Source of the DNA: Candidatus Poribacteria bacterium
GTDB lineage: Bacteria > Poribacteria > WGA-4E > WGA-3G
DNA length: 64,000 nucleotides
Reading direction: 5' to 3'
Assembly: GCA_965205015.1 (NCBI GenBank)
Contig: OZ242029.1
Span: 2,688,001-2,752,000 of the forward strand
The notes under the pieces are model-generated. The model saw only the letters and a program-made list of their open reading frames with translations. It made no database searches and was not told the DNA's origin. Each line of letters starts with the position of its first letter. Position 1 is the stretch's first letter. Positions 1 to 49,542 of the stretch are shown here, piece by piece. The position numbers and the translations under genes are program-made.

Positions 1-1262
1 CGCCCTGCCTTTTGCGTTTCCGCCTGAAATAATTGACTCATTTCTCTAAAGAGGTCCAGTTGTATCTGTGAGTCGTTCGTCGTTTCCAGTGGATCGCTTG
101 ATAAATCGTAGAGTTCCAATGGCTCAAAAGGACTGTTGTGCAATAATTTAGTGTCCCCACGCCGTATGGCATGCTGACACTGCCCCAGAAATCGCTGTCC
201 GCCCTCTCTTCGCAACCAGTAGAGAATGCGGTCAGAGAAGTCTTGCTGTTCCCCTTGGAGTGTTTGCCAAATTGAACGTGCTTCGATTTCGTGAGTGATC
301 GGGACTCCAGCTACCTCACAGACTGTCGGGAAAAGGTCCATCAGCAAGGCCACCTGATCGGTGACATGTCCCTCCGGAACATGCCCTGGCCACATTGCAC
401 AGGTCGGGACTCGGATGCCGCCTTCGTACATTTCACCCTTTTGCCCGCGTATGGGACCGTTATGTGCGCCGACGTCCATCGACCCGCCATTATCAGAGGT
501 ATAAATAACGAGTGTATTGGACAGCTGATCCGTTTCAACAAGCGTATCAAGTACTCGCCCAATACCAGCATCCATGTGCTCAACAAGCGCAATGTATTTG
601 GCGCGCTGTGGAGAAATGTCCGGCTCGCGTTCCCTGACGCGTTCCACCCAATCATCCGGCGGTTGGATCGGTGTATGTGGCGCGTTATATGCAAGATAGA
701 GGAAAAAAGGAGACTCGGATGATTCTGCCTGAGCACGAATGAAATCCGTACTCCATTCCGTGAAGAGGTCTGTGGCGTGTCCTCTCGGATCGATCGTATC
801 GAAGCCGTGTTGCATGTAATTGATATCGTGTCGGAGATGTGTGTAGTAGTCATCCATCATATCGCCGAGAAAACCGTGGAAATGGTCGAAACCCCGTTTA
901 CATGGATGGTTCTCCGGTTCAAGTCCAAGGTGCCACTTACCGATGAGTGCGGTCTGATACGCCTTCCGCTTCAAAATTGATGGGAGTGTGACGGCGTCCT
1001 GTCGAAAGTAGCCCCAACTGTTTTCTGGATGGGTGCGGATTACGCCCGGCACTCCGACTCGGTCGGGGTAGCGTCCGGTCATGAGAGCGGATCTACTGGG
1101 AGAACAGACGGAGGAATTGGCATAAAATTGGGTAAATCGCACCCCGTTTTCGGCGATTCTGTCAATATTGGGCGTCTGAATTGATGGACCGTTGTGAGCT
1201 GAAATATCACCATAACCGTGGTCGTCGGCGAGAATAAGCAGTACATTCGGGGACTTCGTCAT
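1..1262 (-). CDS. Sulfatase (arylsulfatase family), 3'-truncated by window edge
   Basis: Manual translation of the minus strand from the ATG at 1262 gives MTKSPNVLLILADDHGYGD...ANSSVCSPSRSALMTGRYP...IGKWHLG...YNAPHTP. It carries the CxPxR formylglycine motif. It is absent from the ORF track because there is no stop codon in the window. Confidence 0.9.
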   Translation of the reverse strand, partial: MTKSPNVLLILADDHGYGDISAHNGPSIQTPNIDRIAENGVRFTQFYANSSVCSPSRSALMTGRYPDRVGVPGVIRTHPENSWGYFRQDAVTLPSILKRKAYQTALIGKWHLGLEPENHPCKRGFDHFHGFLGDMMDDYYTHLRHDINYMQHGFDTIDPRGHATDLFTEWSTDFIRAQAESSESPFFLYLAYNAPHTPIQPPDDWVERVREREPDISPQRAKYIALVEHMDAGIGRVLDTLVETDQLSNTLVIYTSDNGGSMDVGAHNGPIRGQKGEMYEGGIRVPTCAMWPGHVPEGHVTDQVALLMDLFPTVCEVAGVPITHEIEARSIWQTLQGEQQDFSDRILYWLRREGGQRFLGQCQHAIRRGDTKLLHNSPFEPLELYDLSSDPLETTNDSQIQLDLFREMSQLFQAETQKAG

Positions 1263-1378
1263 AATGTTTCCTTGACAGATGTAGGCGAATCCTAAACTCG
1301 TCCATGCCTCAGTGGCGTCGAGGAATGAGTGCAACCGGTCGTTCAGAGAACGCCCCAGCTGCACTCGGTTTGTCTGGT

Positions 1379-2167
1379 CTATTGCCGAGCTTTAATGCTG
1401 CCCCATGTGGTTGCAAGCTTACCAGAAGGCTCAACAGGCAGGAGTGTTCGCATTCCTTTTTCCATCAATTCCTTTATATCTTCTGCTTCCAGCACAGAAG
1501 CGAAAATTGCGACCTCATAGAGTATACCATCGAGGGTCTCTGAAGTGTTGTTGGTCCAACCACCGATGTTGACATCCGTGTCATTCCGAGGTGCCGGTTT
1601 ACCCATCCCGCCAACAGAAGCGATTTCCTCAGCATTTTCGTAGATCTTGATGGTATCCTTTGCGTCGTAAGTTGCGGTCATGTACAACCATTCATCTTTC
1701 TTCACTTGACTTTGATTCCAGGCACCTTTCCAACCGCCGTTCGCGAAGTAAGCTTCCCAACCGGTGCCGGAGCTGCTTGTCCTGAAGGCGTAATTTGCCA
1801 CTGTACCCGCCGCGGGTCTTTTGCCGAGAATATGTCCATACCCGTTCTCGGATTTGTTGACATACACCCATGAAGTGATTGACCACGCCTTTTCCAGATA
1901 CATACTGTCGGAATCTGCGATGATAACCCGATCATTTTGTCCATTTAAGCTTAGAGCGGCGGGACCCTTATTTGGTCCTTTGACCCATTTTCCGCCCTGA
2001 AGTTCACCGTGATTCTCGTTTCCAGAGATATCCTCGATTTGATCGCCTTTCCCTTCGTCGAGTAGCCAAATGCCTCTTGCGGTTTCAAAATCTATCTCTG
2101 CATAGGTTGGGACTGCGAAGGTCAAACCGATGGTGATAATCGCTAAGCAAACTATAACGGATTTCAT
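1379..2167 (-). CDS. Secreted LamG/concanavalin A-like domain protein (paralogue A1; its RBS is interrupted by the structured element)
   Basis: Signal peptide, W-L-L-D-E-G...D-I-S-G-N-E-N-H-G LamG-like pattern, C-terminal VEPSGKLATTWGSIK; highly similar to 2671..3453. Confidence 0.85.
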   Translation of the reverse strand: MKSVIVCLAIITIGLTFAVPTYAEIDFETARGIWLLDEGKGDQIEDISGNENHGELQGGKWVKGPNKGPAALSLNGQNDRVIIADSDSMYLEKAWSITSWVYVNKSENGYGHILGKRPAAGTVANYAFRTSSSGTGWEAYFANGGWKGAWNQSQVKKDEWLYMTATYDAKDTIKIYENAEEIASVGGMGKPAPRNDTDVNIGGWTNNTSETLDGILYEVAIFASVLEAEDIKELMEKGMRTLLPVEPSGKLATTWGSIKARQ

Positions 2168-2173
2168 GTTTAC

Positions 2174-2574
2174 CTGTTCTTAAAAACCTATGTTTTTCCG
2201 AAGAAATCCATAAATTTCTAAAGGGTTCCTAACCCCTGTTACGGCACCCGTCAGTGTCTAAGCCTACCTATACCCAACTGTGCCTGCCACGTTAGCAGAA
2301 GATATAGGCGGCTTGCATATCCCAAGAAACACGGGATATGGACGAACCGTCAAAGTTAGCACCGAAATGCTAACGCCTTTTTCTCGCCCCGTACTCTATT
2401 TTCCAGGCTCATCAACGGGTATTTGAACCTGTCGGGCAGCCCTACGTGGTTCTTGTAGGTTGCATTGGTTTTTGCGACTGCCAGAGGCGGTATGTGGGAA
2501 TCGAACCCACCGAGAATGCCTACATTTACCGCGAAACATAGAAAAAACAAGAAAAACAACTATGTAGGAATGAC
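2174..2574 (-). ncRNA. ~400-nt structured non-coding element (copy E1) between SD and start codon
   Basis: Homologous to 23789..24204 (57/60 identical at the 5' end, covarying hairpins throughout); absent from the equivalent site of paralogue 2671..3453. Confidence 0.8.
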
Positions 2575-2670
2575 TCCTAAAGGTTGAATTTACCGTTAAA
2601 GAACATTTACGTCGGTGTGTCCCTTTAGTTGTTCAGGTGACCCACCGACTGCGCCCAATTTGTTCAACGC

Positions 2671-3453
2671 TTATTGAGATTTGATGTCTGCCCATGTCGT
2701 TGCGAGTTTGCCAGAAGGTTCAACAGGAGTGACTAAGGACGGGAGTCCCTCGTCCATCAGGGTGTTTACGTCTTCTTCTGACAGCGCGACACTAAAAAGC
2801 GCGACCTCAGAAAGCATACCGTCAAGGGTCTCTGTGGTATTGTTGGTCCAACCGCCGATGTTGGTGTCAGTATCATTCCGGGGTGCCGGTCCACCAAGAC
2901 CGCCAACAGAACCGATTTCAGCTCCGTTTTCGTAGATTTTGATGGTGTCTTCTCCATCATAAGTTGCGGTCATGTACAACCATTCATCTTTCTTGACGGT
3001 TCCTTGATTCCAAGCCCCTTTCCAGCCGCCTCGCGAGTAATATGCTTCCCAGCCGGTACCATTGCCGCTTGTCCTGAAGGCGTAATTTGCCACCGTCCCA
3101 GATGCGGGTCTTTTGCCGAGAATATGTCCAAAACCGTTCTCGGTGCTATTCACGAAAACCCATGCAGTGATTGTCCACGCCTTCTCCAGATACAAACTAT
3201 CGGAGTCAGCAATGATAACCCGATCATCTTGTCCGTTCAAACTTAGGGCAGGCCCATTCGGTCCGTCGACCCATTCTCCGCCCTGAAGTTCACCGTGATT
3301 TTCGTTTCCAGACATATCGTTGATCATATTGCCTTCGCCTTCATCGAGTAACCAAATGCCTCGTGCGGTTCCAAGGTCGATCTCCGCATAGGTCTGGACT
3401 GTGAAGGTTAGACTGATGATAAGAATCGCTAAGCGAATTATAGTGGATTTCAT
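2671..3453 (-). CDS. Secreted LamG-like domain protein (paralogue A2; intact RBS TTAGGAGGTAAAATG)
   Basis: Tandem paralogue of 1379..2167; C-terminal VEPSGKLATTWADIK. Confidence 0.85.
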   Translation of the reverse strand: MKSTIIRLAILIISLTFTVQTYAEIDLGTARGIWLLDEGEGNMINDMSGNENHGELQGGEWVDGPNGPALSLNGQDDRVIIADSDSLYLEKAWTITAWVFVNSTENGFGHILGKRPASGTVANYAFRTSGNGTGWEAYYSRGGWKGAWNQGTVKKDEWLYMTATYDGEDTIKIYENGAEIGSVGGLGGPAPRNDTDTNIGGWTNNTTETLDGMLSEVALFSVALSEEDVNTLMDEGLPSLVTPVEPSGKLATTWADIKSQ

Positions 3454-3497
3454 TTTACCTCCTAAAGGTTGAATGTGCCGTTAAGGGATGTTTTGAA

Positions 3498-3584
3498 TGG
3501 GCAGATACAAGACCTGCCCCTACAAGTGGGCAGATACAAGACCTACCCCTACAAGTGGGCAGATACAAGACCTGCCCCTACAAG
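3498..3584. repeat. 3 x 29-bp tandem palindromic repeat (GTAG-type REP-like)
   Basis: TGGGCAGATACAAGACCTGCCCCTACAAG three times head-to-tail with one mismatch in copy 2; GGGCAG/CTGCCC stem followed by CTAC. A related single copy lies near 26087-26113. Confidence 0.85.
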
Positions 3585-9889: not shown

Positions 9890-10180
9890 TACAAACGTTT
9901 CCCTTTTTTATTTGGGCATACGGGTTGTGCCCTTTGTAATTACAGAATATAGGGGAATTATAGCAGATTTTCAATCCAAAATCCAGAAGAAAATGTGTCA
10001 ATCGCTCATAATATGTTTGACACCAATCCGATACATCGCATAAAATTTCAGTTACGAGAAATAAGAGCAGGACATACGCAATTTGCGGGTGATACGCTAC
10101 AGTTCACACGCCGCTGGCGAGGTTTCAAACCTCGCCAGCACAGGGGCTGCGTAAGTCCTAAAGAGATTGGAGGGAAACCA

Positions 10181-22014: not shown

Positions 22015-22130
22015 TATAGTAAGTCCCACAATTACGTGGACACTGGGGCGAGGTTAAAAACCTCGCCAGCGGGATGCAGGATGGTGCTGCTGCTCCCTGA
22101 GGTGTTAACTTATTTTTCGACTTTACTATA
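22015..22130. mobile_element. MITE-like repeat (TATAGTAA...TTACTATA ends, internal GGCGAGG/CCTCGCC hairpin)
   Basis: A second copy lies at 49424..49542; the internal hairpin also occurs near 10112-10139. Confidence 0.6.
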
Positions 22131-23481: not shown

Positions 23482-23685
23482 TTTGGCATCCTTTTCAGAA
23501 AAAATAAGATGGGGCAATCGTCGTCAATGCAGCTTCTAAAACATATTGAAGAAACACCCAAGCAAATAAACCTTGTGGGACTAAAGTGTTCTTTTCCTAC
23601 ACACCCTTAGCATATCACAGAAATTAGGGTATGTCAAAGGATTTTTATCTGTTTCCAGTAGAAAACGCGCAAATGCAAATTTTCC

Positions 23686-23788
23686 TTGACATATTTGGGT
23701 GCTTTCCTATATCATATTCCTATGCGTTAAAACGCGGGTCTCTTTTTAAGATTCGCACAGTGCGTTAATTTTGTTTTAGACATGAGGG
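23686..23788 (+). promoter_or_regulatory. Sigma70 promoter (TTGACA-17-TATCAT) and leader, duplicated upstream of the next paralogue (~25118-25220)
   Basis: TTGACA tatttgggtgctttcct ATATCA/TATCAT region; near-identical block GTTAAAACGCGGGTC...AGACATGAGG in both copies. Confidence 0.65.
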
Positions 23789-24204
23789 GTCGTTCCTAAA
23801 TAGTTGTTTTTCTTGCTTTTTCTATGTTTCGCGGTAAATGTAGGCATTTTGAGGGGTTCAAGTCCCCTCTCCCGCATCCCAGTAGCATCGTGCGATACCC
23901 AAGCACACCCGACGAAAACCACGTCGGTTCTACTGTGAGGGGTTCATACACGAGTGAGACGAACCCTGACACTGTGAGGACACTCGGAAGTAAAATAAGG
24001 CGTTAGCATTTCGGTGTTAACTTTGTGGGTTACACCATACCTCGCGCAACCTTGAGGTATGCAAGCCGCGTATCGCTTCTGACGACGTATCAGACGACAC
24101 TGGTGATATTCAGGCTTAGAGGCTGTCGAGTCTCGTCATAAGGGGGTAGGATCCCCGTAGAAATCTGTGGGTTTAAATAGAAATACATAGATTTTTACTA
24201 ACAG
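23789..24204 (+). ncRNA. ~416-nt structured non-coding element (copy E2) between SD and start codon
   Basis: Homologue of 2174..2574; absent from the duplicated leader of 25229..26023. Confidence 0.8.
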
Positions 24205-24212
24205 ATATATTC

Positions 24213-25004
24213 ATGCGTTTAATGTTGTATTTATTTGCCGTTTCACTCTTAATGGTAGGCAGTGCGCTTACCACACACGCTGTGGTCCAAGACGACGGCT
24301 TAATCCTTTATTTCAGTTTCGATGACGCAAAAAACGGAACAATTATGGATGAAACCGGTGGCGGAAATGATGGTGTCGTTGATGGCGCAGAGATTGCTAC
24401 CGACGAAGTCGTCTACGGCAAGGGATCCTTGTTATGTGATGACGGTAATGACAGTGTGTCGGTTGATACTTTTAAAGAATTAGAGGAATATACAGACAAT
24501 TCCTATCTTTTCTGGCTCAATTTCACCGACGTGAATTCCGGGGCGTGGAATCAAATCATAGCAAAAAAAGCACCCGGTTCTGACCGTTCTCCGGGGATAT
24601 GGACTTGTAACCGCGCCAGTTTGCATATCCACTATCGGTTCAATCCGGGTAACCAAGGCACACTCTGTGCGGGTCCCGAGGGAGAAGATGACGAATTTGC
24701 AGTCGGGGACTGGCATCACATTGCAGGTGTCAAAGAGGGTGACCAGTTGAAGTTCTATGTTGATGGAGAAGTCGTTGTGGAGCAGAGTGTTCCGGCGAGT
24801 CACGCGCAAGGTGCGGAGAAACTCTATATCGGTAAAACGGGTTATAACGCTGCGCTCTTCTACATTGATGACCTCTATGTCTATGACAGAGCACTCAGTG
24901 CCGATGAAGTAGAAAATATCATGGAGGGGGGGCTTCTCACGCCTGTGGAACCTCAGGACAAACTCGCCACGACGTGGGGACACCTGAAAACACGCCGTGA
25001 TTAA
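24213..25004 (+). CDS. Secreted LamG-like domain protein (paralogue B1; RBS interrupted by the element)
   Basis: Signal peptide; motifs LILYFSFD, WHHIAGV, IDDLYVYDRALS; C-terminal VEPQDKLATTWGHLK. Confidence 0.87.
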   Translation: MRLMLYLFAVSLLMVGSALTTHAVVQDDGLILYFSFDDAKNGTIMDETGGGNDGVVDGAEIATDEVVYGKGSLLCDDGNDSVSVDTFKELEEYTDNSYLFWLNFTDVNSGAWNQIIAKKAPGSDRSPGIWTCNRASLHIHYRFNPGNQGTLCAGPEGEDDEFAVGDWHHIAGVKEGDQLKFYVDGEVVVEQSVPASHAQGAEKLYIGKTGYNAALFYIDDLYVYDRALSADEVENIMEGGLLTPVEPQDKLATTWGHLKTRRD

Positions 25005-25228
25005 TTTCGTTCTTCCCTGAAACAACTTGTAGGGACGGCTTCTATGTCGTCCCACATCTATTTCCCCATTTGTGTCTGCCTATTTCTCGAATACACACCC
25101 CACCGCACATATTTTCCTTGACATCTTTAAGTTTTTTCGTGTATCATATTCTCACGAGTTAAAACGCGGGTCCTTTTTAAAGACTCACACAGTATGTTAA
25201 CTTTGTTTCAGACATGAGGAGGTTACTC

Positions 25229-26023
25229 ATGCGTTCAGTTATGTATGTACTCGCCGTTGCCCTATTAGTCATAGGCAGCGCACTCTCCACAGATGCCGCA
25301 AAGGTCGAAGATAAGGGGTTAATCCTTTACTTCAGTTTCGATGAAGCAAAAGGCGGAAATCTTGAAGATGGAACCGGTGGCGGAAATAACGGTGAAATCG
25401 TTGATGGGGCGAAGATTGTCAAGGATGAAGTTGTCCATGGCAAAGGTTCAATGTTATTTGCCAAGCCGGGGGACAGTGTGCAGGTCGATTCCTTCAAAGA
25501 ATTAGAAGATTATACGGACAACTCCTATCTCTTCTGGCTCAACTTTACGGATCCAAACTCCGGTGGCTGGGATCAGATTATTGCAAAAAAAGCTCCCGGC
25601 TCTGACCGTTCACCCGGTATATGGACCTGTAACCGTGTACCTCTGTATATCCACTACCGGTTTAATCCCGGTAACGCCGGCACGCATTGTGCAGGTCCCG
25701 ATGGAGAAAACGACACATTTGATGAGAATAAGTGGTATCACATTGCAGGGGTCAAAGAGGATGCCCAGTTGATGTTCTATGTCGATGGAAAAGAGGTTGT
25801 GAAGATAGCCGTTCCGAAGGATCACGCACAAGGTGCGGAGAAACTTTACATCGGTAAAACGGGTTATAACGCTGCGAAGTTTTACATTGACGATCTCTAC
25901 GTTTACGACAGAGCCCTGAGTGCGAAAGAGGTTGTAAACGTTATGGAGGGTGGACTACTTCCTGTTGAACCTCAAGACAAGCTCGCCTCTACGTGGGGAC
26001 AACTGAAAAGAAATCGTGACTAA
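25229..26023 (+). CDS. Secreted LamG-like domain protein (paralogue B2; intact RBS GAGGAGGTTACTCATG)
   Basis: Tandem paralogue of 24213..25004; C-terminal VEPQDKLASTWGQLK. Confidence 0.87.
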   Translation: MRSVMYVLAVALLVIGSALSTDAAKVEDKGLILYFSFDEAKGGNLEDGTGGGNNGEIVDGAKIVKDEVVHGKGSMLFAKPGDSVQVDSFKELEDYTDNSYLFWLNFTDPNSGGWDQIIAKKAPGSDRSPGIWTCNRVPLYIHYRFNPGNAGTHCAGPDGENDTFDENKWYHIAGVKEDAQLMFYVDGKEVVKIAVPKDHAQGAEKLYIGKTGYNAAKFYIDDLYVYDRALSAKEVVNVMEGGLLPVEPQDKLASTWGQLKRNRD

Positions 26024-26056: not shown

Positions 26057-26158
26057 TGAAGATTAAGAATTTAATTCGGTAATATGTGGGCAGGCACAAG
26101 ACCTGCCCTACAATGTCTTTTTTGGGATAGGATTACCGAAATATTTATTTAAACTTCA
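26057..26158. mobile_element. MITE-like insertion carrying a REP-like palindrome
   Basis: Imperfect TIRs TGAAG...TTCGGTAAT / ATTACCGAA...CTTCA. It interrupts a hairpin that is uninterrupted downstream of paralogue B1 (~25029-25060). Confidence 0.55.
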
Positions 26159-49423: not shown

Positions 49424-49542
49424 TATAGTAAAACCCGTAATTACTTATACACCAACACAAGGGCGAGGATACAATCCTCGCCAGCGGTGGTGGGGTGTTT
49501 GTTCCCTGACGAACTGTAAACATATTTTTGGATTTTACTATA
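49424..49542. mobile_element. MITE-like repeat (second copy of the 22015..22130 family)
   Basis: TATAGTAAA...GGCGAGG-CCTCGCCAGCGG...TTTACTATA. Confidence 0.6.

Follow-up and report, generated by a model that had tools for sequence, protein, structure and literature searches.

What is a miniature transfer RNA (tRNA) fold doing in the RNA upstream of two genes for LamG-domain proteins? The question is raised by a 64,000-nucleotide (nt) window of Candidatus Poribacteria DNA (contig OZ242029.1 of assembly GCA_965205015.1, positions 2,688,001-2,752,000, forward strand), which is the whole of the stretch analysed and to which the coordinates below refer unless a locus elsewhere is named. Two related sequences of the window, E1 (400 nt; 2174-2573, minus strand) and E2 (415 nt; 23790-24204, plus strand), contain the fold, and a sequence-only reading had taken both for structured gene leaders. 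They are instead non-autonomous members, resembling miniature inverted-repeat transposable elements, of an IS607-family insertion sequence of Candidatus Poribacteria, and each has come to lie, with a TnpB guide RNA (omegaRNA) scaffold, between the Shine-Dalgarno (SD) sequence and the start codon of a LamG gene. The tRNA-like module that they carry is real and is under selection for its fold, and its most probable role would be that of a processing signal for host enzymes of tRNA maturation.

A tRNA-like module under selection for its fold

The module of E2 (23831-23876, plus strand) consists of a 6-bp acceptor whose 5' strand is GCGGTA (23831-36) and whose 3' strand is TCCCGC (23870-75), a 4-bp hairpin with a UAGG loop (AATG-TAGG-CATT, 23837-48), a TT linker, a 6-bp T-arm with a UUCAAGU loop (GAGGGG-TTCAAGT-CCCCTC, 23851-69) and a discriminator-like A at 23876. 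That of E1 (2486-2532, minus strand) has the corresponding parts GCGGUA/UACCGC, AAUG-UAGG-CAUU and GUGGG-UUCGAUU-CCCAC, with C at 2486. The sequences and positions first read from the letters (23831-23875 on the plus and 2532-2487 on the minus strand) are as claimed, and so is the GCGG/CCGC acceptor-like closing, described as weaker in E2: the E2 acceptor contains one U.C mismatch, at which the ~95%-identical copies L001 and L004 carry G, restoring the pair. Folding of the single sequences yields the three proposed helices in both modules, with modest z-scores of -1.9 and -1.7.

Further copies were gathered with a hidden Markov model (HMM) of the domain downstream of the module, applied to loci from pattern, BLAST and 16-mer searches; since the HMM covers the downstream domain only, the collection is independent of the module. 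The 16-mer search returned no fewer than 118 stretches, most of which are chance hits in genomes unrelated to these; of the new loci, 16 were BLAST-positive. The HMM gave 41 hits comprising 32 distinct sequences (the extraction windows of L023 and L083 being set by hand), and the module is present in 30 of these, L035 being without it and L105 retaining only its 3' half.

Covariation was computed on the alignment (A3) of the 30 module-bearing copies. Standard pairs fill 95.4% of the cells of the three helices, compared with 39-55% when the partners are slid, and both sides have changed at 8 of the 16 pairs (52 cells). The covariation score is 0.335; shuffles give 0.143, and none of 500 reaches the observed value. 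Acceptor position 5, for example, is U-A in 16 copies, C-G in seven and G-C in three; hairpin position 3 is U-A in 20 and C-G in 10; and T-stem position 4 is G-C in 19 and C-G in seven. The loops are by comparison constant, the UAGG loop having U in 29, A in 29, G in 30 and G in 29 of the 30 copies, and the UUCRANU T-loop U in 30, U in 30, C in 28, a purine in 30 and A in 30. It is these compensatory changes in all three helices around constant loops that demonstrate selection on the pairing. The canonical T-loop on a covarying stem, the small GG-containing loop and the lack of an anticodon arm, all noted earlier from two sequences, hold throughout the set, and T-loop and acceptor pairing are both kept in these additional homologues, the point on which the sequence-only reading had staked itself.

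The 6-bp acceptor and the 6-bp T-stem (5 bp in five copies) make up a 12-bp stack as in tRNA, and a coaxial stack of about 12 bp with a 7-nt UUCRANY T-loop, the shape of substrates of the RNase P and RNase Z type, is what is found. Module length varies from 44 to 48 nt. The base preceding the acceptor is A in 22 of the 30 copies; that following it is A in 26, succeeded by U in all 30 and then by CC. To judge from its letters, the UAGG loop of the 4-bp hairpin can supply contacts like those of G18/G19 in tRNA.

The module is set well apart from true tRNAs and is widespread in this phylum of sponge symbionts. With a covariance model of it, 14 element copies from five genomes reach 62-82 bits; the next-best matches reach 24-29 bits, and the two of these that were fetched are genuine tRNA-Gly(UCC) genes according to ARAGORN. 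In a phylum sample the model finds 78 matches (E<=1e-6) in 34 of 150 genomes, at 1-8 per genome. BLAST of domain II, the structure next downstream, against the same sample with up to five candidates scored per genome gave 66 matches in 30 genomes, 63 of which have a module match just upstream when coordinates are compared by hand. Loci read individually showed the module to be missing from TnpB-encoding copies and from a second class of mini-element.

Comparison with known RNA families places the module in none of them. As the sequence-only reading had expected, ARAGORN calls no full tRNA, with no tRNA or tmRNA (transfer-messenger RNA) gene in the window and no tRNA in 10 element-bearing loci, and the tRNA family RF00005 has no hit on E1 or E2 at its gathering score or at E up to 10. 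The best permissive Rfam match on E2, covering exactly 23831-23875, is that of mascRNA-menRNA (RF01684; 20.1 bits, E 0.22), and membership is ruled out by a gathering score of 42.5. A tmRNA match of 12.5 bits, against a gathering score of 84, is confined to the 17-nt T-arm of E1 and was likewise rejected.

An IS607-family insertion between Shine-Dalgarno and start codon

The nature of the elements emerged from their relatives. A 20-nt pattern that lies mid-element, outside the module, occurs in nine stretches of a species-genome collection, all titled Candidatus Poribacteria. Searched by BLAST against five Poribacteria genomes, E2 had 7, 7, 2, 5 and 7 matches that were full-length, restricted to the 5' half (about 5-250) or restricted to the 3' half (about 234-417). 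In seven loci a TnpB open reading frame (ORF), ending ...HRMDRDLNGARGIF... and bearing the Pfam domains Cas12f1-like_TNB, OrfB_IS605 and HTH_OrfB_IS605, runs straight into the 3' half. In two others (L031, L036) the element's first ~40 nt are followed by an ORF with Resolvase and MerR-type helix-turn-helix domains, which is an IS607-type serine-recombinase TnpA. Because the ends of E2 are common to the TnpB-flanked and TnpA-flanked copies, the parent is an IS607-family insertion sequence, and because the same sequence directly follows TnpB ORFs, E1 and E2 have omegaRNA scaffold and right end as their 3' half. The E2 scaffold is 80-84% identical to the post-TnpB sequence of L014, L024, L025, L028, L029 and L030 and 76% identical to that of L034; a shorter 3' half, from copies of ~300-350 nt, likewise follows TnpB ORFs (L231, L232).

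E1 and E2 themselves align over ~400 nt with a mean column identity of 79% and many paired changes. The mini-elements are still mobile, near-identical copies being found at separate loci (three in genome G050 at 97% identity and two in G119 at 99%). The second class (L019/L033, L009, L230, L224) combines the common ends and scaffold with a different 5' domain that has no T-loop, beyond which only a GAACCAC loop motif is shared; G050 holds both classes with an identical left end.

E1 and E2 sit between the SD sequence and the start codon of LamG (Laminin_G_3) genes. At E2 the left flank is AGGGG (23785-23789, plus strand) and at E1 it is AGGAG (2574-2578, minus strand), each of which is both transposon-adjacent motif (TAM) and SD sequence; the genes that follow lie at 24213-25004 (plus strand) and 1379-2167 (minus strand). 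Both elements end ...AACAG, 6-8 nt upstream of the LamG ATG. Each interrupted gene has a tandem paralogue with a repeated promoter and leader, related to it through repeat D4 at E2 (23676-23787 and 25108-25219, 81% identity) and repeat D11 at E1 (2574-2608 and 3459-3493, 83% identity). These paralogues provide the empty sites, at 25108-25231 for E2, with the same promoter and leader free of any insertion, and at 3493-3451 for E1, and their leaders read SD, 4-7 nt and ATG. When the flanks of E1 are rejoined, ...TTTAGGAG+GTAAACATG is obtained, near to the tttaggaggtaaaatg of the paralogue. Since the paralogues keep promoter and leader without the element, E1 and E2 are insertions rather than leaders.

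Copies that have a left end are flanked on the left by AGGAG, AGGGG or AAGAG; AGGAG was counted in 16 of 20 copies with a left end found by pattern, a count that is partly circular as the pattern required a purine-rich pentamer, and the AGGAG-type flank is also seen directly in locus reads and in the alignment, independently of the pattern. The available text of PMC13565253 gives AGGAG or GAGGG as the TAM of most IS607 TnpBs, and that of bioRxiv 10.1101/2023.11.20.567912 has IS607 TnpA recombining at a core dinucleotide found at both junctions. A promoter-like TTGACA-18-TATCAT (23686-23715, plus strand; 11 of 12 consensus matches), which recurs upstream of the uninterrupted paralogue as part of repeat D4, would transcribe through E2 into LamG. 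Insertion after AGGAG or AGGGG in the orientation of the host gene implies transcription of the mini-elements from the host promoter.

Within the transcript the module is the first of several structured parts. It is preceded by a T-rich left end (23790-23830, plus strand) that agrees with those of L031 and L036, both autonomous, as far as ...CTATGTTT and is divergent beyond; in most relatives the left end opens TAG..TAA..TAG (first 12 nt, TAGTTCCTAAATAG), with stops in all three frames. AUCC is the sole spacer between the module and domain II (23880-23935, plus strand), a three-way domain in which a CAGUAG/CUACUG stem encloses two hairpins with AACCA-type loops that read AAAACCA(A/C), and in which compensatory changes are visible both in the alignment of 19 long copies and between E1 and E2. 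There follows a conserved domain (23939-23989, plus strand; read by eye) that resembles an H-type pseudoknot, GGGUUC pairing with GAACCC and the loop CGAGUG with a downstream CACUCG; both strands are altered together in L023 and in E1, where by alignment to E2 the domain is degenerate. A hairpin GUUAGCA/UGUUAAC (24002-24021, plus strand), in whose place TnpB-encoding copies have an ORF-embedded hairpin GCACGGG...CCCGUGC, leads into the omegaRNA (or right-end element RNA, reRNA) scaffold and right end (24021-24204, plus strand), ending ...UUUUUACUAACAG. The RNAalifold consensus of the 19 long copies, from which L083 (insertion) and L105 (truncation) were left out, recovers module, domain II, pseudoknot-like domain, hairpin and scaffold, and the whole of E2 folds with z = -2.7. 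As the available text of PMC11061315 places the guide of IS607 TnpB in the ~20 nt after the scaffold, the putative guide segment of E2 would be 24205-24224 (plus strand), covering the LamG start codon at 24213.

The autonomous left end has a promoter-like TTGGCA-17-TATAAT with the ATG of tnpA only 6 nt past the -10 box (L031, 1501-1545, and L036; by eye), and for this reason the tnpA mRNA may be leaderless. In the mini-elements the acceptor/hairpin junction (UAAAUG or UAAACG) takes the place of this TATAAT, and a promoter scan of E2 gave no qualifying site at that position; a left-end promoter inside the mini-elements was rejected on these grounds. MAFFT aligned domain II (...GAACCUCGGCGGUUCUA...) with tnpB 3' coding sequence (...AACCACGUCGGUUCUA...), which is suggestive of homology between the two rather than establishing it.

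A number of incidental features may be recorded here. The invariant AACC of the domain II loops (23895-23903 and 23912-23920) could contact the invariant GGUU of a hairpin loop that follows CUUUG (about 24026-24031), a long-range loop-loop contact at positions without the variation that could show covariation; in TnpB-encoding copies GAACC occurs in an ORF-embedded hairpin at the corresponding place. Heptamer-like CCAGTTA/CCAGTAA microsatellite runs lie inside the RNA domains of L003 (about 1100-1440, minus strand) and L083 (800-900). At L035 (about 1785-1900) the next gene begins MEVRIEYCTA, followed by an in-frame TGA and then NYQPRAASLADALKEKYG..., and has by eye the look of a SelW/Rdx-type selenoprotein with a CxxU motif. 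In the window itself the LamG-domain secreted-protein genes form two tandem pairs on opposite strands (1379-3453 and 24213-26023), and in each pair exactly one gene bears an insertion. A 29-nt unit (TGGGCAGATACAAGACCTGCCCCTACAAG) is present in three tandem copies upstream of the first pair (3498-3584) and once more, at 76% identity, downstream of the second (26087-26115), with the look of a REP-type hairpin repeat. A GC-rich hairpin (GGCGAGGTT..AACCTCGCC), possibly of a REP or terminator family, occurs three times in both orientations (10109-10141, 22040-22072 and 49455-49487; repeats D9/I6/I8). The sole Rfam family above its gathering score in the window is the PyrR binding-site RNA (RF00515; 39003-39141, minus strand), at 57.3 bits against 54.

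Functions weighed for the module

Recruitment of tRNA-processing nucleases, as proposed in the sequence-only reading, is still the best reading of the module, on support that is indirect and falls short of direct proof. In its specific form, which is judged evenly poised between right and wrong, the module would act both as an insulator and as a processing target, at which RNase P and a 3' endonuclease of tRNA define the 5' end of the guide RNA within host read-through transcripts. Host RNase P would cut 5' of the module, before G23831 in E2 and before G2532 in E1, and an RNase Z-type tRNA 3' endonuclease would cut after the discriminator-like base, after 23876 in E2 and after 2486 in E1. The downstream omegaRNA would thereby be freed from the host 5' untranslated region with a fixed 5' end whatever the landing sequence, and TnpB supplied in trans by autonomous copies could use the released RNA.

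The distribution of the module is of the kind that such a role would produce: in TnpB-encoding copies the scaffold lies within the tnpB mRNA, and the module is found where the RNA depends on host read-through. Three copies have a defective module (L035, L105 and L234). In L035 a promoter-like TTGCAA-17-TAAAAT ends 7 nt before domain II, exactly at the place of the module, and in L105 a TTGGCA-18-TATCAT replaces the 5' half of the module; with promoter-like sites standing there, an RNA starting about at the module's 3' edge appears to be a natural variant. At its 3' boundary the module moreover resembles tRNA genes of the host. In none of the 30 module copies is the discriminator-like base immediately followed by CCA in the DNA, and in genome G001 35 of 41 tRNA genes are without an encoded CCA, many of their trailers starting with U on inspection by eye; ARAGORN flagged eight G001 tRNAs as CCA-ending, two of which were judged to be acceptor CC plus discriminator A. 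There is precedent, too, for cleavage of tRNA-like modules by RNase P or RNase Z, in the mascRNA of MALAT1 and the C4 RNA precursor of phages P1 and P7.

Other evidence weighs against it. In the third defective copy, L234, there is plain truncation and no evident promoter, leaving the promoter argument with two cases, in which consensus matches are not evidence of function. The RNA runs, which contain 10-12% of the sampled words, were compared as assembled contigs of related copies matched at 88% likeness, which cannot show transcript ends; contigs cover domain II, pseudoknot domain and scaffold in four of four runs and the module in one run only, the RNA label of that run being a guess, and a lack of cover carries no weight in such data. 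A 690-nt contig from a run of guessed RNA label extends unbroken through a related left end, module and domain II. The RNase Z model TIGR02651 scores 80-82 bits against a cut-off of 293 in all five genomes, the 80-bit match being to a ~290-aa metallo-beta-lactamase protein. Bacterial RNase P is said to prefer U before the acceptor, where the module mostly has A. TnpB is reported to process the 5' end of its own omegaRNA, and a host-dependent signal may consequently not be needed. Finally, the second mini-element class has the same ends and scaffold without the module, which is accordingly not essential for mobility or scaffold carriage.

A broader proposal is held more tentatively and is reckoned somewhat more likely to fail than to hold: that the transposon has evolved a minimal tRNA mimic by which host RNase P and 3' endonuclease would carve the TnpB guide RNA out of any host mRNA, the ~46-nt mini-tRNA perhaps being CCA-tailed and the targeting of SD sequences guaranteeing sense transcription.

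The strongest competitor to processing, although itself rather unlikely, is that the module is never cut and acts as a compact 5' cap or insulator, stabilising the omegaRNA and preventing its mispairing with host sequence, or as an elbow that docks onto RNA or protein. Such a cap would protect the omegaRNA from 5'-end-dependent decay or from pairing of variable host sequence with the scaffold. The module does fold by itself into a three-way junction, a tertiary contact at the elbow is suggested by the near-invariance of its UAGG loop and T-loop, and the stops in all three frames of the preceding left end fit with keeping ribosomes off structured RNA; the uncut contig from the run of guessed RNA label is also what a cap would give. 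However, a plain stable hairpin would protect equally, leaving the strict tRNA geometry of a 6+6 bp stack and T-loop consensus unexplained, and the promoter-bearing L035 is entirely without the module. The tertiary docking platform that the sequence-only reading had offered as its other option is weakened as well, since TnpB-encoding copies and the second mini-element class do without the module, so that docking of TnpB or of the scaffold does not require it.

The usual IS607 TAM (AGGAG/GAGGG) coincides with the SD sequence, and the insertions lie in the SD-ATG spacer, where they part the SD of the host gene from its ATG by 400-415 nt and raise the question of how that gene is translated. On a further reading, considered improbable, the module serves the host gene, by internal ribosome entry site-like help in reaching the start codon or otherwise by making the insertion less harmful, in the manner of the group I intron of an IStron. 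Among 28 copies whose right end can be recognised, 23 have an ATG 5-11 nt beyond it (L012, L064, L093, L113 and L128 do not), and by eye about half of the copies have no SD-like sequence between right end and ATG. Some junctions rebuild a partial SD (ACAG|G...), and others, that of E2 included, keep none. Insertions also stand before genes that, named by eye from their first residues, are taken to be nuoD (L015 and L016, in two genomes) and a lexA-like gene (L017). The IS607 IStrons, as far as the available accounts of them go, show that such elements can evolve harm-limiting RNA devices. Against a host-gene role, the module lies 230-330 nt away from the start codon, and the recently moved copies of G050 have no nearby ATG downstream.

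Nor was any sign found of an RNA device that would rejoin SD and ATG. A self-splicing, IStron-like intron was rejected: searches permitting E up to 10 matched E1 and E2 to no group I (Intron_gpI), group II or small-ribozyme family, the 5' flank ends in G rather than U, and the consensus fold lacks the P4-P6/P3-P9 layout of group I introns. No spliced joints were seen in the assembled RNA contigs of related copies, which is weak evidence. RAGATH-18 has no hit on either element at its gathering score or at E up to 10, the sole RAGATH match being RAGATH-32 at 11.7 bits and E 6.3. A helix between left and right ends that would bridge SD and ATG was also discarded: some copies have complementary GUUCCUAAA and UUUAGGAAC, but in E2-type copies the right end reads UUUACUAAC and the complementarity to GUUCCUAAA is broken (by eye), and the aligned copies show by eye no consistent co-variation. 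Circularization of the omegaRNA by tRNA-splicing enzymes was judged not relevant here; an archaeal study, in the part of it available, finds no bulge-helix-bulge motif at circular omegaRNAs.

That the module is a functionless tRNA-gene relic captured by the transposon, or a DNA-level site such as a cruciform or recombinase-binding sequence, is highly improbable and largely refuted by the covariation of all three helices around constant loops, for although the best true-tRNA matches of the model include tRNA-Gly(UCC), confirmed in two of the weak hits, whose acceptor GCGGGAG/CUCCCGC resembles the GCGG(G/U)A...UCCCGC of E2, L001 and L004, and although the module stands at the place of the -10 region of the autonomous left-end promoter (L031 compared by eye with L012 and L064), the tRNA-Gly likeness is weak (24-29 against 62-82 bits) and an origin from that gene was rejected, TnpA does not need the module since autonomous copies are mobilised without it, and no hairpin is required by IS607 transposases, which are serine recombinases whose element is excised as circular double-stranded DNA according to the available text of bioRxiv 10.1101/2023.11.20.567912.

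Relation to known systems

As a mobile element the insertion is of a kind already known, a non-autonomous IS607 TnpB/omegaRNA element with the usual TAM. Like ISFba1 and CboIStron, it has autonomous relatives with a serine-recombinase TnpA and TnpB, a guide RNA scaffold that overlaps the 3' end of tnpB and reaches the right end, an AGGAG or GAGGG TAM, and a terminal G or AG common to both junctions. The available text of PMC11061315 describes for ISFba1 TnpB a 5'-AGGAG TAM and a 187-nt scaffold with two pseudoknots; here domain II through right end amounts to ~325 nt of RNA. Unlike IS607 TnpB transposons the present elements have no RAGATH-18 or group I intron hit, and compared with their own TnpB-encoding relatives they have ~165 nt extra (module, domain II and pseudoknot domain) that is not recognisably present there. 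They encode no protein and would need TnpA and TnpB in trans, and in this they resemble PATE-like derivatives of IS200/IS605, for which protein-less forms with omegaRNAs for trans use are described in the available part of PMC10055086. IStrons, as their available descriptions have it, are similar in being IS607-family elements with an extra structured RNA beside the omegaRNA and in inserting into transcribed host sequence; the extra RNA of the Poribacteria elements is by Rfam no group I intron and is confined to protein-less copies.

It is the tRNA-like module fused to guide RNA domains that is undescribed, as far as searches show: no report of such a module in TnpB or IS607 elements was found in the literature, the supplementary alignments of whose papers might show one. 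For annotation the consequence is that an apparent 400-nt structured leader is a mobile element between ribosome-binding site and start codon. Were the processing role correct, it would constitute a third way, beside TnpB self-processing and IStron splicing, of handling omegaRNA within foreign transcripts, and a case of host tRNA enzymes being used by a transposon.

The module finds its closest parallels among reduced tRNAs of other RNAs. mascRNA and menRNA are, in the available accounts, tRNA-like 3' modules of MALAT1 and MEN-beta that are cut by RNase P and RNase Z. As in mascRNA, a small tRNA mimic that keeps acceptor and T-arm whole and has its remainder reduced is part of a longer transcript other than a tRNA, and the working proposed is the same, tRNA enzymes setting the ends of the neighbouring RNA. 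The differences are a bacterial rather than vertebrate host, the lack of any anticodon-arm remnant, and a position 5' rather than 3' of the functional RNA. The tRNA-like domain of tmRNA likewise combines acceptor and T-arm with a reduced D-region and no anticodon arm, its acceptor strands being hundreds of nt apart as against 45 here.

In engineered tRNA-guide RNA arrays, of which the module would be a natural counterpart, tRNA folds serve to release guide RNAs, and a phage example of the same principle is the C4 antisense RNA precursor of P1 and P7, reportedly processed by RNase P (Hartmann et al., 1995). Single guide RNAs released by mascRNA have also been engineered, as the available part of bioRxiv 10.64898/2026.08.20.745814 reports. 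Common to all of these and to the present proposal is a tRNA-like fold by which host nucleases give an RNA a precise end; those are, however, a phage regulatory RNA and laboratory designs, and not the guide RNA of a transposon. A covariation-validated tRNA mimic of 45 nt that is naturally fused to a guide scaffold is in this respect a candidate for a compact guide RNA processing tag.

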